From Patescibacteria group bacterium (GTDB lineage: Bacteria; Patescibacteriota; Minisyncoccia; UBA6257), in contig JAUPUN010000015.1 in assembly GCA_030917555.1 (NCBI GenBank), forward strand, positions 1 through 35,568: a stretch of 35,568 nucleotides of DNA, read 5' to 3'. Below are positions 7,044 through 21,021 of this stretch, piece after piece. The notes under the pieces were generated by a model. It saw nothing but the letters and a program-made list of their open reading frames with translations, did no database searches and was not told where the DNA came from. The translations under genes were made by a program, and so were the position numbers. The first letter of the stretch is position 1. Every line of letters begins with the position of its first letter.

Positions 7044-8042
7044 ATGCTTAATCCGGAATTAAAATTAAATAGTGGCTTATTTTCAGAGAAAGCTGAAATA
7101 AAATCCATGAGAGATGGATTTGGAGAAGGGTTAGTTTTAGCTGGAGAATTGAACCATCAAGTAGTGGCTCTTTGTGCTGATGTCACAGAATCTTTGAGAA
7201 TGAATTTATTTCGAGACCGTTTTCCGGAAAGATTTTTTGAGTTAGGAGTTGCTGAACAAAATATGATCGGTGTGGCTTCTGGTTTGGCGGCCACTGGCAA
7301 GATTCCGGTAGTGGGGAGTTATGCTGTTTTTTCTCCAGGAAGAAATTGGGAACAGATTAGAACCACTATTTGCTACAATCAGCAAAAAGTAATTTTAGTT
7401 GGTTCTCACGGTGGTTTAAATGTAGGGCCAGACGGTGGTTCCCATCAAGCCTTAGAAGATTTAGCCTTAACTCGTGTTTTGCCTCAACTAGCAGTAATCA
7501 GTCCTTGCGATTATTGGGAGGCTCGAAAAGCACTTCTTGAAGCTCTTACTTATCCTACCTCTGTTTATCTAAGATTAGCCAGAGCCACGGGGCCAGTTAT
7601 AACTAGCCCCGAGACTCCTTTTCAAATAGGGAAAGCTCAGGTTTTTTGGCTTCCTGAAGAGCCTTTTTCTGGAATTACAGTAGTGGCCACTGGTTTTTTA
7701 GTTTTTGAAGCCTTAAAGGCAGCCCAAGAATTAGCTCAAGAAAAAATTAACATTGCGGTAATTAATAATTCTACTATTAAACCTTTAGACCAAACTTTAA
7801 TCCTAGCATGGGCCCAGAAATCCAAATTAATTTTAACTTTAGAAGAGCATCAAAAATTTGGTGGGATGGGTTCTACTGTCAGCGAATTTTTGAGTGCTAC
7901 TTATCCGGTGCCAATGCATTTCTTGGGAGTAGCTGATACTTTCGGCGAATCAGGAGAAGCTCAAGAGCTAATTAAAAAATATGGTCTTTCTAAAGATAGC
8001 CTAAAAGAAGTAATAAAAACATTGCTAATTGAAAAATTATGA
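7044..8042 (+). CDS. Transketolase C-terminal subunit
   Basis: GVAEQNM, GPDGGSHQALED, YLRL, EEHQKFGGMG; ATG 7044 preferred over TTG inside the repeat. Confidence 0.93.
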   Translation: MLNPELKLNSGLFSEKAEIKSMRDGFGEGLVLAGELNHQVVALCADVTESLRMNLFRDRFPERFFELGVAEQNMIGVASGLAATGKIPVVGSYAVFSPGRNWEQIRTTICYNQQKVILVGSHGGLNVGPDGGSHQALEDLALTRVLPQLAVISPCDYWEARKALLEALTYPTSVYLRLARATGPVITSPETPFQIGKAQVFWLPEEPFSGITVVATGFLVFEALKAAQELAQEKINIAVINNSTIKPLDQTLILAWAQKSKLILTLEEHQKFGGMGSTVSEFLSATYPVPMHFLGVADTFGESGEAQELIKKYGLSKDSLKEVIKTLLIEKL

Positions 8043-11923: not shown

Positions 11924-14044
11924 ATGGCTAGAACTAAAAAACAAAAAAGAGAGCATACTGCTTTAGAAAGAGAAACAAAATCTTCTTTAGCTCCAGAAAT
12001 CAAAAACAATATTTTAGCAATTTTTTTTGTAGCCTTATCCTTAATTCTTATTTTAAGTTTTTTTGATTTCGCTGGTCCTTTTGGTAGATTAGTCTATCGA
12101 ATTTTTGATTATCTTTTAGGTTGGGGTTATTTTCTTTTACCCCTGCTTTTAGTTATTATTGCTTTTCACTACTTTCGTTCTTGGACTGAAAAGCTCAATT
12201 TTAATGAAATCACTCTTTTAGGAGCTGTTTTAACTCTTTTTTCTAGTCTTTCAATCATTGAGTTGTTTTCTGCTCAAAGCGGTGGATTAATTGGTAGACT
12301 GGGAGCTGCTTTGCAGGCAGTTTTAGGTTTTTGGGCTTCTTTAATTATTCATTTAGCCCTTTTGATTTCTGGCTTACTTTTAACTTTTAATACTCCTTTA
12401 CAATTTCCTAAGTTTTTCAAAAAGAAAAATCACTTGTCCTCTTCTTCTCCTTCTCTTACTGCAACTACAATTCCCCTTGCTTCAAGCGAGAAACAGGTAG
12501 AGACGGAACTAAAAATTAATGGGGGAGGAAGCAGTATTCAAGAAAAACCAGAAAAAACAGAAAAGGAGAAAGAAAACAAAAAATCTAATTATTTTGTGAC
12601 AAAAGTAGCTGGTAATTACGAAATTCCTCCCTTAGATTTATTAGACAGTGGCAGTACTAGACCGACTGTAGGCGATATTAGAGCTAATGCTAATATTATT
12701 AAAAGAACATTAGAGAGTTTTGGCATTATTGTAGAAATGGGAGAGGTCAATATTGGTCCTACTGTGACTCAATACACTTTAAAGCCCACTGAAGGAGTTA
12801 AATTATCAAGTATTACTGCCCTACAAAATGATCTTTCTTTAGCTTTGGCAGCGCATCCTTTAAGAATCGAAGCACCGATTCCTGGCAAGTCTTTAGTGGG
12901 AATTGAAGTACCTAATAAGGCAGTAGCTTTAGTGCGTTTAGGCAATTTATTAAAAGAAATTAATTTTCAAAAAACTACTCCGCCTTTAGCTTTTGCCTTA
13001 GGCAGAGATGTAGAGGGGAAAATTGTGGTACCAGATTTAAGTCAAATGCCTCATCTGCTTATAGCGGGAGCTACTGGCTCAGGCAAAAGCGTTTGCATTC
13101 ATTCTATTATTAGTTCTTTTCTTTTAAAAAATTCTCCCAATTCTTTAAGACTTCTTTTAATAGATCCTAAAAGGGTGGAACTAGCTCGTTATAATGGCAT
13201 TCCCCATTTATTAACTTCAGTAATTACTGATAATAAAAAAGTTTTACCAGCTTTAAAATGGGTTTTAAACGAAATGGGTAGGCGTTATGATTTACTGTCA
13301 GAGTACCAGGCTCGGGATTTAGAAAGTTATAACCTAAAGGCTTTAAATAATAAAGAAGAGCCTTTACCTTATTTGGTAGTTATTATCGACGAATTAGCGG
13401 ATTTAATGATGTATTATGGCCATGATTTGGAAAGTTATATTATTAGAATTGCTCAAATGGCTCGAGCTACTGGTATTCATTTAATTGTTTCTACTCAGCG
13501 GCCTTCAGTAGAAGTAATTACCGGTTTAATTAAAGCCAATATTACAGCGAGAATTGCTTTTCAGGTAGCTTCTCAGGTTGATTCCAGAACTATTTTAGAT
13601 ATGGCTGGCGCAGAAAAACTTCTAGGTCACGGAGATTTACTTTTTCTCTCACCAGAATCTTCTAAGCCAAGGAGAATCCAAGGCGCTTTTATTTCTGAAG
13701 AAGAAATCGAAAGATTGGTGTCCTTTATTATTAAACATAGCTCACTAGAAGGAAGTAATGGTTTAGGCATGGAAGTTTCTCAATTTTTAGCAGAAGCCAC
13801 GCCGGAGCAAATTAATCTTGATAATTTAGAAGAAACGGAAGATGAACTTTATCCAGAAGCTTACGAAGTAGTAGTTAAAGCTCAGAAAGCCTCAGCTTCT
13901 TTACTTCAGAGACGTTTAAAAATTGGCTACGCTAGGGCAGCTCGCTTGCTCGACCTCTTAGAAGCCAGAGGAGTGGTAGGACCGGCTGATGGAGCTAAAC
14001 CTCGAGATGTTTTTGTGAAATCTCAAGATGAAAATAGAAATTAA
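11924..14044 (+). CDS. ftsK: DNA translocase FtsK/SpoIIIE
   Basis: N-terminal TMs, GATGSGKS, IDELADLM, TQRPS, gamma domain SASLLQRRLKIGYARAAR. Confidence 0.97.
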   Translation: MARTKKQKREHTALERETKSSLAPEIKNNILAIFFVALSLILILSFFDFAGPFGRLVYRIFDYLLGWGYFLLPLLLVIIAFHYFRSWTEKLNFNEITLLGAVLTLFSSLSIIELFSAQSGGLIGRLGAALQAVLGFWASLIIHLALLISGLLLTFNTPLQFPKFFKKKNHLSSSSPSLTATTIPLASSEKQVETELKINGGGSSIQEKPEKTEKEKENKKSNYFVTKVAGNYEIPPLDLLDSGSTRPTVGDIRANANIIKRTLESFGIIVEMGEVNIGPTVTQYTLKPTEGVKLSSITALQNDLSLALAAHPLRIEAPIPGKSLVGIEVPNKAVALVRLGNLLKEINFQKTTPPLAFALGRDVEGKIVVPDLSQMPHLLIAGATGSGKSVCIHSIISSFLLKNSPNSLRLLLIDPKRVELARYNGIPHLLTSVITDNKKVLPALKWVLNEMGRRYDLLSEYQARDLESYNLKALNNKEEPLPYLVVIIDELADLMMYYGHDLESYIIRIAQMARATGIHLIVSTQRPSVEVITGLIKANITARIAFQVASQVDSRTILDMAGAEKLLGHGDLLFLSPESSKPRRIQGAFISEEEIERLVSFIIKHSSLEGSNGLGMEVSQFLAEATPEQINLDNLEETEDELYPEAYEVVVKAQKASASLLQRRLKIGYARAARLLDLLEARGVVGPADGAKPRDVFVKSQDENRN

Positions 14045-19587: not shown

Positions 19588-20199
19588 ATGTTTAATTTGA
19601 TTCCTCCTCTTCTTCTTCTGATAGGTCTAGCAGGTTTAATTTTACTTTTACACCATCAAGAAAATATTATTTCTTCAGAGGAAGAATCAAAAACCTTTAC
19701 CACAAAAGAAAAGAAGGGTAAGAAGAAGTGGTTTGTAAATTCTGCGCAACTTGAAAATGCCAAAGCGAAGATAAAACATTTCTTTGAAAAAATTTTGATA
19801 AGATTAAGAATAATTGTTTTGAGAATGGATAGAATTTTACTGCATTCCCTCGAAACTTTAAGAGGTAAAAACCAATTAGAGAATCTAGAGGATCAAGAAA
19901 AAAGAAAAGGTTTGTTTAGAAAAAATAAGATTAACCTTAAACATTCTACTTTAGATTCTCAATTAGAAAAGATGGATTTAAGAGAGCAGGAGGAAAAACT
20001 ATTATTAAAAATTTTGCACGACGAAAGTAATTTTGATGATTTAGTAAATTTAGCTAGGTTATATCTTTTTGAAAAGGATTTTCCTTCTGCGAGGTGGGCC
20101 TTAATTCAAGCCTATCATTTAGAAGATAATAATAAGATTATCGAAGGTTTATTTTTAGAGCTGGAGGAGAAAGATTCTTCAGCCTTTCCATCGGAATAG
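19588..20199 (+). CDS. Hypothetical membrane-anchored protein with a C-terminal TPR-like repeat
   Basis: N-terminal hydrophobic helix; LVNLARLYLFEKDFPSARWALIQAYHLE resembles one TPR. Confidence 0.65.
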   Translation: MFNLIPPLLLLIGLAGLILLLHHQENIISSEEESKTFTTKEKKGKKKWFVNSAQLENAKAKIKHFFEKILIRLRIIVLRMDRILLHSLETLRGKNQLENLEDQEKRKGLFRKNKINLKHSTLDSQLEKMDLREQEEKLLLKILHDESNFDDLVNLARLYLFEKDFPSARWALIQAYHLEDNNKIIEGLFLELEEKDSSAFPSE

Positions 20200-20281
20200 C
20201 TTAAGAAAAGATCTGATCATTATTCATTTTGAGCCGAGATAGCTCAATGGTAGAGTAACTGTTTTGCGGAGCGAAGCGTAG

Positions 20282-20386
20282 CCCCCACACCAAGCCGCGC
20301 CACCTTAGCTCAATGGTAGAGCAACTGTTTTGTAAACAGTAGGTTCTCGGTTCAAATCCGGGAGGTGGCTCTGATTGGTGTGGGGG
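20282..20386. repeat. Perfect 12-bp inverted repeat bracketing the inner tRNA-Thr
   Basis: CCCCCACACCAA (20282-20293) and TTGGTGTGGGGG (20375-20386). Confidence 0.9.
20299..20370 (+). tRNA. tRNA-Thr(UGU), intact inner copy
   Basis: GCCACCT/AGGTGGC acceptor, GCTC/GAGC D-stem, ACTGT-TT TGT AA-ACAGT, CTCGG-TTCAAAT-CCGGG; no encoded CCA. Confidence 0.95.
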
Positions 20387-20474
20387 TAAAGTTGCGGGTT
20401 TAAATTCCCCTCTTGGCTCCTTGATAAGAGTAAAGGTACAATTGTGGACTGGAAGAAGAGAGTTAGTTTTTGAA

Positions 20475-20561
20475 GGGCAGGTGGCGGAGTAGACAAACGC
20501 ACGAGACTGTAAATCTCGCGGCCTTAGGCCTTCGTAGGTGCAAATCCTACCCTGCCCACCA
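20475..20561 (+). tRNA. tRNA-Tyr(GUA)
   Basis: GGGCAGG/CCTGCCC, CGAGA-CT GTA AA-TCTCG, long variable arm GGCC-TTA-GGCC, encoded CCA. Confidence 0.95.
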
Positions 20562-20581
20562 GTTTCTGTAATTTTTGTTCT

Positions 20582-20654
20582 GCCTGGATAGCTCAGTCGG
20601 TAGAGCACGTCTTTGGTAAAGACGAGGTCGGCGGTTCAATCCCGCCTCCAGGCT
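20582..20654 (+). tRNA. tRNA-Thr(GGU)
   Basis: GCCTGGA/TCCAGGC, CGTCT-TT GGT AA-AGACG, GGCGG-TTCAATC-CCGCC. Confidence 0.96.
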
Positions 20655-20681
20655 CCTCCTAATTATTTTTAAAATTTTAAT

Positions 20682-20840
20682 ATGAAAAAAGAGAATATCG
20701 TTAAATTGCAATGTACAGTTTGTAAACATATTAATTATTACGTTCATAAGAATAAAAAAACAGTGGAGCGTAAATTAGAATTCAAAAAATATTGTCCTTG
20801 GTGCAGAAAGCACACTCTTCATAAGGAAGGGAAGAAATAA
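20682..20840 (+). CDS. rpmG: 50S ribosomal protein L33 (absent from ORF track)
   Basis: Manual translation: MKKENIVKLQCTVCKHINYYVHKNKKTVERKLEFKKYCPWCRKHTLHKEGKK. Confidence 0.96.
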   Translation: MKKENIVKLQCTVCKHINYYVHKNKKTVERKLEFKKYCPWCRKHTLHKEGKK

Positions 20841-20845
20841 CTTCT

Positions 20846-20918
20846 AGGGGCGTAGCTCAATTGGTAGAGTAGCGGTCTCCAAAACCGTTGGTTGCAGGTT
20901 CGAGTCCTGCCGCCCCTG
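20846..20918 (+). tRNA. tRNA-Trp(CCA)
   Basis: AGGGGCG/CGCCCCT, GCGGT-CT CCA AA-ACCGT, GCAGG-TTCGAGT-CCTGC. Confidence 0.96.
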
Positions 20919-20950
20919 CTTTTTCTAAAGATTCAGCAGCTCGGTTTACT

Positions 20951-20985
20951 CTTTAAAAAGTCTCATTCAGTGAGACTTTTTAAAG
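20951..20985 (+). terminator. Intrinsic terminator of the tRNA cluster
   Basis: Perfect 15-bp inverted repeat CTTTAAAAAGTCTCA-TTCAG-TGAGACTTTTTAAAG. Confidence 0.8.
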
Positions 20986-21021
20986 TTGATGGAATAAGTT
21001 TATTTTAAAAGATAACCTAAC

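Follow-up and report, generated by a model that had tools for sequence, protein, structure and literature searches.

How does an intact tRNA gene come to lie inside a second tRNA gene with the same anticodon, and what becomes of the gene that it splits? The question is raised by contig JAUPUN010000015.1 of a Patescibacteria group bacterium (GenBank assembly GCA_030917555.1), of which the whole stretch of 35,568 nt analysed here (hereafter the window) is contig C13 of a 31-contig, 408-kb genome with ~34% G+C (G000). Within a tRNA-Thr(UGU) gene of the window lies a cassette, bounded by inverted repeats (arms), that itself holds a whole tRNA-Thr(UGU). The cassette is likely a non-autonomous palindromic element, linked to a family with GIY-YIG nuclease genes, that replaced the resident tRNA-Thr(UGU), while any particular mechanism for its mobility is held with much lower confidence.

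Architecture of the split tRNA-Thr(UGU) gene

The initial annotation of the locus, made from the sequence alone, had parsed it as an intact tRNA between perfect 12-bp inverted arms inside a second tRNA, and this parsing proved correct to the letter:

20233-20266, + strand: 5' part of the outer (resident) tRNA-Thr(UGU), now a pseudogene, with acceptor strand GCCGAGA, D arm, 5' strand of the anticodon stem and the loop up to G35
20267-20281, + strand: 15-nt filler CGGAGCGAAGCGTAG between outer G35 and the left arm
20282-20293, + strand: left arm, the 12-bp left terminal inverted repeat CCCCCACACCAA
20294-20298, + strand: 5-nt spacer GCCGC, 5' of the inner tRNA
20299-20371 by ARAGORN, 20299-20370 by Rfam, + strand: cargo, a complete inner tRNA-Thr(UGU) with anticodon tgt
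20372-20374, + strand: 3' spacer (reading CTGA when discriminator T 20370 is counted as the last base of the tRNA)
20375-20386, + strand: right arm, the 12-bp right terminal inverted repeat TTGGTGTGGGGG, exact reverse complement of the left arm
20387-20418, + strand: 3' remnant of the outer tRNA, with TAAA (positions 36-39), a degenerate T arm and acceptor strand TCTTGGC plus T

With its tRNA cargo the element is ~105 bp long and lies between positions 35 and 36 of the outer tRNA-Thr(UGU). Five C in the left arm pair five G in the right arm, so that the one ambiguous G is assigned to the outer tRNA and the site to 35/36. In a single-strand DNA fold the arms pair as one continuous 13-bp helix (z = -4.5). 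The inner tRNA has an Rfam tRNA score of 72.4 bits, and the outer 5' part is identical to it at 26 of 27 positions (score 50). The outer acceptor strands GCCGAGA and TCTTGGC pair with each other, and the outer 5' part fits the resident tRNA-Thr(UGU) of the GCCGAG type, a gene that most genomes of the family have in uninterrupted form ahead of tRNA-Tyr. Both the filler and the 5-nt spacer differ among carriers of the cassette, the filler being CGGAGCAAAGCGTAG in genome G001, GAAACCTAG in G024 and absent from G026, and the spacer TTTGT in G001 and TCCGT in G024.

Insertion into the resident gene and its decay

That the interruption is an insertion at the level of DNA is shown by empty and filled sites. 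The Thr-Tyr-Thr-Trp tRNA cluster was retrieved from 26 other genomes of the family, and a plain GCCGAG-type tRNA-Thr(UGU) stands directly before tRNA-Tyr in about 16 of these. Within a single genus, this gene is intact in G022, and in G024 the same 5' and 3' parts enclose the cassette, which takes the place of the middle. A second orthologous site is similarly polymorphic, as a resident tRNA-Met is plain in relatives and filled in G000 and G006.

The cargo tRNA is intact and the outer tRNA-Thr gene is dead. In the window, the outer copy has lost the 3' strand of its anticodon stem and is 6 nt shorter than the resident type. It has no Rfam match at E values up to 5 in 20180-20470, where only the inner tRNA was detected; ARAGORN with introns allowed (-i) found no outer intron-containing tRNA at the locus and, at default thresholds, no tRNA once the insert was removed and the outer halves were put together. 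G000, G001, G024 and G026 all have the cassette with a cargo tRNA of the GCCACCT type, and the outer halves differ among these carriers, each being the lineage's own resident gene in a different state of decay. For example, in G001 a further palindrome has broken into the outer 5' half, and G026 lacks both the right arm and the 3' half. No other tRNA-Thr(UGU) was found in G000 by ARAGORN, the cargo being the only copy found.

Recurrence of the arms across genomes

The arm motif has two exact matches in the window, a count that is not significant, as 19 of 100 shuffles also reach two when up to 2 mismatches are allowed. It is recurrence across genomes that marks the arms as more than chance. 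In the 408-kb genome the 10-mer CCCCCACACC has four occurrences, which form two arm pairs, each with a tRNA between them. The arm pair was found in 7 of 61 related genomes (0 for a reversed control pattern) and in 28 of 401 genomes of the order (97-420 spacing). In a species-representative collection, arm 11-mer pairs were found at at least 123 loci with 66-96 spacing, and arm pairs at 60 loci with 270-300 spacing. The loci belong to many Patescibacteria classes and to the Omnitrophota, Planctomycetota, Margulisiibacteriota, Nitrospinota and Pseudomonadota. These counts bear out the suggestion of the initial annotation that the arms belong to a dispersed palindrome in Parcubacteria, resembling repetitive extragenic palindromes (REPs) or MITEs (miniature inverted-repeat transposable elements), and they extend it beyond the Patescibacteria. 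Its emphasis on a GCGAAGC mini-hairpin did not survive, since this heptamer occurs 32 times in G000, which is background, and the 15-mer is not conserved in G001, G024 or G026.

The structure is not an assembly artefact, since a single contig from another run covers all of it (in run X4, the whole of 20000-20700 lies within one 1100-nt contig, with 2 letters differing). In total, 20 runs from 12 studies contain the stretch, whole or in part. Viral contigs gave 0 matches to the arm pair at 66-96 spacing, so that nothing in this collection points to a phage as the vector.

A family of elements linked to a GIY-YIG gene

The arms are the signature of a family linked to a GIY-YIG gene. They may enclose a tRNA, a GIY-YIG open reading frame (ORF) or a cargo-less interior. 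The smallest members are bare palindromes of 32-38 bp (L145), while members of ~100 bp have AT-rich interiors that are not tRNA. Whole tRNAs are held by 23 of 153 non-redundant copies, consistent with the earlier proposal that the tRNA was captured as cargo, although this share and the size distribution are biased by the fixed spacings of the scans (66-96, 97-420 and 270-300). Interior G+C is 0.33 in cargo-less and 0.48 in cargo copies. The possibility that the cargo-less copies of ~100 bp are decayed tRNA cassettes was rejected, as tRNA-like interiors were detected in 0 of 120 of them versus 23 of 23 cargo copies (nhmmer with a tRNA profile, E below 10). Copies of the element also nest within one another (L006/L160).

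Members of ~300 bp have only an ORF of ~85 amino acids between their arms. This ORF is intact in 50 of the 60 copies of that size, and its alignment conserves the GIY, YIG, Arg, Glu and Asn positions. The 85-aa product is a single-domain protein that matches the Pfam GIY-YIG family (PF01541, E = 1.8e-16), and its best solved relative by sequence is the UPF0213 protein 1zg2_A (E = 7.9e-4). Four GIY-YIG-bearing copies (L147, 1501-1805; L151, 1501-1801; L258; L260) lie within the first bases of tRNA-Glu or tRNA-Ile genes, where the G run of the arm stands in for G1-G3 of the tRNA, with the result that ARAGORN still calls an intact tRNA starting inside the arm. In G000 itself, small GIY-YIG genes or remnants occur at four places, each with its own inverted repeats:

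C26:7585-7839: GIY-YIG with ACCCCCATCTTTTA arms
C12:141-365: GIY-YIG with CACCCAGCACATAACTTT arms, paralogue of the C5 copy, with an in-frame TGA
C5:1503-1664: GIY-YIG with CACCCAGCACATAACTTT arms, paralogue of the C12 copy
C24:134-352: GIY-YIG amid GC-rich tandem palindromes

Insertion sites, cargo and flanking words

The flanks of the 23 tRNA-bearing copies are the halves of another tRNA, with 0-1 of the 23 lying outside tRNA genes. Cargo and target share an anticodon: the outer anticodon is readable in 10 copies, being the same as that of the cargo in nine and different by one base in the tenth. In the alanine cases the outer acceptor stem retains the G3:U70 pair, which marks alanine tRNAs. 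Part of this match can be put down to selection, as a cell would not survive other insertions into a single-copy tRNA gene. The anticodon loop, proposed at the outset as the target, is indeed often hit, but D-loops and T-loops are hit too:

Anticodon-loop insertions: Thr-UGU, Ala-CGC, Gly-CCC, Leu-UAG, Pro
D-loop insertions: Arg-UCU, Gln-CUG, Arg-UCG, Thr-CGU
T-loop insertions: Met-CAU, Arg-CCG, Gly-CCC

The initial annotation had seen no target duplication, which holds for the window copy (GTAG versus TAAA), but the family differs. Identical 4-nt flanks occur in 54 of 129 cargo-less copies, compared with 10 expected and a maximum of 21 in 2000 shuffles, and most of them fit TNNA. Clean 4-nt flank repeats are also present in four tRNA-bearing copies (L117, L143, L158 and L150). 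Ten of the tRNA-bearing copies are instead flanked by CTTG at one end and TGAA at the opposite end, and this pair may run either way with respect to the tRNA. The CTTG..TGAA pair is seen in L012, L038, L059, L123, L007, L072, L271 and others, whichever the tRNA or loop, and the resident loses 2-4 bases.

Spread between genomes and reversed nesting

Sequence comparisons show that the cassette spreads horizontally between genomes. The cargo tRNA of G000 is 98.6% identical to that of G024, 95.9% to that of G026 and 93.2% to that of G001, while the neighbouring genes are 64-88% (tRNA-Tyr) and 72-80% (tRNA-Thr(GGU)) identical among G000, G001 and G024, the three carriers with neighbours in the fetched loci. 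The same cargo is found in different resident alleles in different genera. In G006, G007 and G008 the nesting is reversed, such that the intact inner gene is a tRNA of the GCCGAGA type, bounded by arms of a different palindrome family, and the outer 3' half is clearly of the GCCACCT type in G006 and decayed in G007 and G008.

A second copy of the element occurs in G000:

C10:1807-1908 (locus L007, 1501-1602): element with tRNA-Met(CAT) cargo and arms CCCCCACACCAT and ATGGTGTGGGGG

The last base pair of these arms is altered on both sides (A..T to T..A). The copy sits in the T-loop of a decayed resident elongator tRNA-Met, a gene that is plain in most relatives, between tRNA-fMet and tRNA-Asp, and split in G000. 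In G006, a resident tRNA-Met of quite another type holds an identical 72-nt tRNA-Met cargo in its T-loop.

Several further tRNA loci have related features. The tRNA-Tyr and tRNA-Thr(GGU) genes beside the cassette are mosaic among relatives (family loci L167-L196), and the tRNA-Thr(GGU) of G000 is 96% identical to that of G022 and 72% to that of G024, which hints that these neighbours are perhaps also replaced from time to time. An apparent three-level nest is present at G024:C1:57696-57966, with an arm, a tRNA-Gly(CCC) 5' half ending in CAAG and a second arm-like end. On contig C3 of G000 (13100-13560), a tRNA-Ile(TAT) gene (c13324-13396) has a 41-nt copy of its own 3' half just downstream (40/41 identical) and a 5' half upstream that is interrupted by small palindromes of the GGGAAAATA..TTTTCCCC type, and is a further nested tRNA with different arms. 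On contig C24 (4770-5040) a 21-nt copy of the 3' end of a tRNA-Gln(CTG) gene (c4969-5040) lies ~95 nt downstream of it, with GGCGGGG motifs before the copy, and is probably what remains of an older tRNA-Gln that had been split in the T-loop. Elsewhere in the window, a GC-rich 23-nt palindrome (GAGCCACGGGGCC..) at 7582-7617 and a perfect 15-bp hairpin at 20951-20985, ~30 nt after tRNA-Trp, could each be either a further small element or a terminator.

Proposed replacement by a mobile element and the alternatives

To account for these observations, we propose that an element with 12-bp terminal inverted repeats inserted at 35/36, in the anticodon loop of the resident tRNA-Thr(UGU), and thereby destroyed it. 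The complete tRNA-Thr(UGU) carried as cargo would have taken over and the resident would then have decayed and, with the cargo as sole tRNA-Thr(UGU), the element could no longer be lost. The cargo is presumably transcribed with the tRNA cluster and excised by the cell's usual tRNA-processing enzymes. No promoter belonging to it was seen, and a promoter and terminator scan of 20050-21000 was uninformative, giving 2 promoter-like sites versus 1.1 expected and none positioned to serve the cassette. Movement would be provided in trans by a GIY-YIG nuclease, probably acting on hairpins in single-stranded DNA, for which the exposed loops of tRNA genes may be preferred targets, and perhaps only copies that make good the tRNA they disrupt survive. 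In some relatives, the two tRNA types have traded places.

A more specific version is put forward tentatively, in which a specialised lineage of the family acts as a tRNA-gene replacement drive. Here, a ~105-bp cassette would be sent into the D, anticodon or T loop of a resident with the same anticodon, kill that gene and become indispensable, and rival alleles would overwrite one another cyclically. The direction of such a drive might come from pairing between cargo and target on single-stranded DNA. The evidence for a part of the GIY-YIG protein in moving the element is physical linkage.

Several results weigh against the proposed explanation. The window copy has no flanking direct repeat, and its 15-nt filler is unexplained. 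In four runs, all kept as contigs, no empty allele or joint skipping the insert was seen, and the two runs marked as possible RNA are probably DNA. Selection alone does not explain the near-absence of tRNA-bearing copies outside tRNA genes. Related copies at different sites share the same flank words, on the left in 10 and on the right in 9 of 12 pairs versus 0.08 expected, in a sample that is small and may include some orthologous pairs. As the flank words co-vary with the element lineage, they look like the element's own cleavage words rather than a plain target duplication, and may therefore not represent target duplication of the classical kind. In G000, no GIY-YIG gene was found between these arms (0 matches at 97-420 spacing), and the nearest small GIY-YIG of that genome shares 50% identity and lies between different arms; both tRNA cassettes are thus orphans or are served in trans. 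Among the 61 relatives, co-occurrence is weak, with a small GIY-YIG in 5 of 7 arm carriers compared with 36 of 61 genomes overall.

Homing is the strongest of the alternatives, though we consider it unlikely. A GIY-YIG nuclease would cut the resident tRNA gene and repair would copy the cassette from a relative's filled allele, so that cargo and target match because the cassette moves only between orthologous tRNA loci. The shared anticodon in 9 of 10 readable cases is expected from such a process, and the junctions are also suggestive, as the right one (TAAAG/TT, with 6 resident nt lost) is the same in G000, G001 and G024 and the left one is ragged, with filler. The fixed words CTTG..TGAA on tRNA-bearing copies in different tRNAs point in the same direction. 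There is moreover a precedent in SegB, a GIY-YIG homing endonuclease of the free-standing kind found among the clustered tRNA genes of phage T4, which is reported to promote inheritance of its own tRNA region over that of a relative (PMC2330249). Among GIY-YIG nucleases with a tie to tRNA genes it is the nearest precedent, but it is a phage protein in a phage tRNA cluster and is not known to come with palindromic arms or with one tRNA nested inside another. Against homing, the flanks beyond the first few nucleotides are each lineage's own resident sequence, which would restrict any co-converted tract to 7 nt or less. The four tRNA-bearing copies with clean 4-nt flank repeats resemble cargo-less copies in this respect, and the occurrence of the same cassette in unrelated resident tRNA-Met types (G000 and G006) would leave little homology for repair. 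Finally, an 85-aa catalytic domain has no obvious means to recognise one tRNA gene specifically.

The initial annotation had looked instead to HUH transposases (IS200/IS605 TnpA or REP-associated RAYT enzymes) as the enzymes that move a REP- or MITE-like palindrome. A Y1_Tnp-like domain does occur in G000, in a 224-aa open frame at a contig end (C11:3126-3359, - strand, E = 1.7e-8), and 18 of the 61 relatives have a Y1_Tnp match. Furthermore, the elements form hairpins, and their flank words behave like the element-specified cleavage words known from IS608. However, this Y1_Tnp ORF is not bracketed by the arms, whose 10-mer is restricted in G000 to the two tRNA loci, while in 50 of 60 copies of ~300 bp the arms enclose the GIY-YIG ORF. 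Y1_Tnp is absent from 3 of 7 arm carriers, its presence in the other four (4/7 versus 18/61 overall) is only a weak co-occurrence, and two of the four matches contain stop codons. The ends of the elements are also perfect terminal inverted repeats, unlike those of IS200/IS605, which are two different subterminal hairpins. Mobilisation by an HUH enzyme is therefore improbable.

An explanation at the level of RNA is more improbable still. In this case, the insert would be intron-like or a processing stalk, with inner and outer tRNA obtained from one transcript, comparable to archaeal bulge-helix-bulge introns or RNase III stems. The arms would make a 12-13-bp helix presenting the inner tRNA, as the initial annotation had pictured, and ARAGORN -i reads the outer tRNAs at six other loci (L004, L005, L017, L039, L117 and L118) as containing introns. 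At the window locus, however, the exons do not join into a functional tRNA, the outer gene having no 3' strand of the anticodon stem and no tRNA call even without the insert, and there is neither a bulge-helix-bulge (the two 3-nt bulges are absent) nor a group I core. The outer halves decay differently from genome to genome, as seen in G001 and G026, and the same arms end 120 cargo-less copies in varied contexts. A stalk with a role in RNA finds no support. In addition, insertion points include D- and T-loops, flank-word orientation does not follow the strand of the tRNA, and the only known RNA family matched at 20180-20470 is the inner tRNA. In archaea, tRNA introns and split and permuted tRNAs interrupt anticodon, D or T loops, and models in which mobile DNA disrupts tRNA genes have been reported (PMC3218864, PMC3293823). 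The present case is bacterial, and the interrupted gene is replaced by a whole second gene rather than spliced, its outer halves decaying.

Lastly, a local tRNA-Thr duplication, recombination scar or assembly chimera with a palindrome by chance is so improbable as to be negligible: the 27-nt stretch common to inner and outer tRNA could mislead an assembler, and contigs of run X1 do break at 20343/20317, but one X4 contig covers the whole structure, the same cassette with its arms is present in three other genera, the arms recur at hundreds of loci, and the inner and outer acceptor stems differ, each being well paired, so that the inner tRNA is not a copy of the outer.

Relation to known systems

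The closest published system is that of the Ssn nucleases, for example SsnA of Neisseria meningitidis (94 aa), where a single-domain GIY-YIG gene is flanked on both sides by the NTS/SRM hairpin repeat (Chenal et al., Nat Commun 2025, PMC11893778). In the main text of that paper, the NTS repeat is described as dispersed through the genome also without ssnA, NTS-ssnA-NTS is compared to an insertion sequence, and the nuclease binds single-stranded DNA at the hairpin repeat, making its cut a few bases upstream; tRNA and Patescibacteria do not occur in this main text (PMC11893778). On that description, the likeness lies in a tiny single-domain GIY-YIG protein (94 aa there, ~85 aa here) encoded between hairpin-forming repeats that are also dispersed without the gene. 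A small GIY-YIG gene flanked by the repeat, as in the Ssn system, is present in relatives of the window copy but not in the window copy itself. The repeats also differ from those described, in that they are the terminal halves of one long palindrome with variable cargo here and short self-contained hairpins there. The degenerate SRM search sequence given with the Ssn system matched 0 of 164 elements, had no match in the window cassette and had one match in the whole G000 genome.

The IS200/IS605 and REP/RAYT systems, which the discussion of PMC11893778 also cites, would be similar in their hairpin-recognising mobility on single-stranded DNA and in having four-letter flank words as part of the element's logic, but no Y1/HUH gene lies between the arms here and the ends form a perfect inverted repeat. 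Resemblances in form are also seen with Correia/NEMIS of Neisseria, RUP and ERIC, which are bacterial MITEs whose associated gene is a DDE transposase. Like these, the family has ~100-bp members with terminal inverted repeats, short flank repeats, many non-coding copies, nesting and a longer gene-bearing relative with the same ends. It differs in its GIY-YIG gene, in having copies with a functional tRNA inside the gene they replace, and in flank words that co-vary with lineage. Integrative elements in tRNA genes are kilobase-sized islands that carry a tyrosine integrase and restore only the 3' part of the tRNA; they share the principle that an insertion is made harmless by bringing the missing tRNA sequence, whereas here a 105-bp element brings the whole tRNA. 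No description of tRNA-carrying palindromic elements inside tRNA genes was found in the literature, with subscription journals outside the coverage and the Ssn supplements not included.

Implications

Of the mobile elements known to make themselves essential, this one would rank with the smallest, as ~105 bp suffice to break an essential single-copy gene and to provide its substitute. For genome annotation, outer halves can be misread as intron-containing tRNAs, as happened with ARAGORN -i at the six loci above. The biology of single-domain GIY-YIG nucleases with hairpin repeats would be widened from the modulation of transformation to possible gene replacement, and the reversed nesting in relatives makes the matching of cargo and target directly testable. 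More generally, a concrete explanation is offered for the broken tRNA halves and mosaic tRNA clusters in genomes of the candidate phyla radiation and, if the replacement drive is true, the tRNA genes of these ultra-small bacteria would be mosaics of successive invasions.

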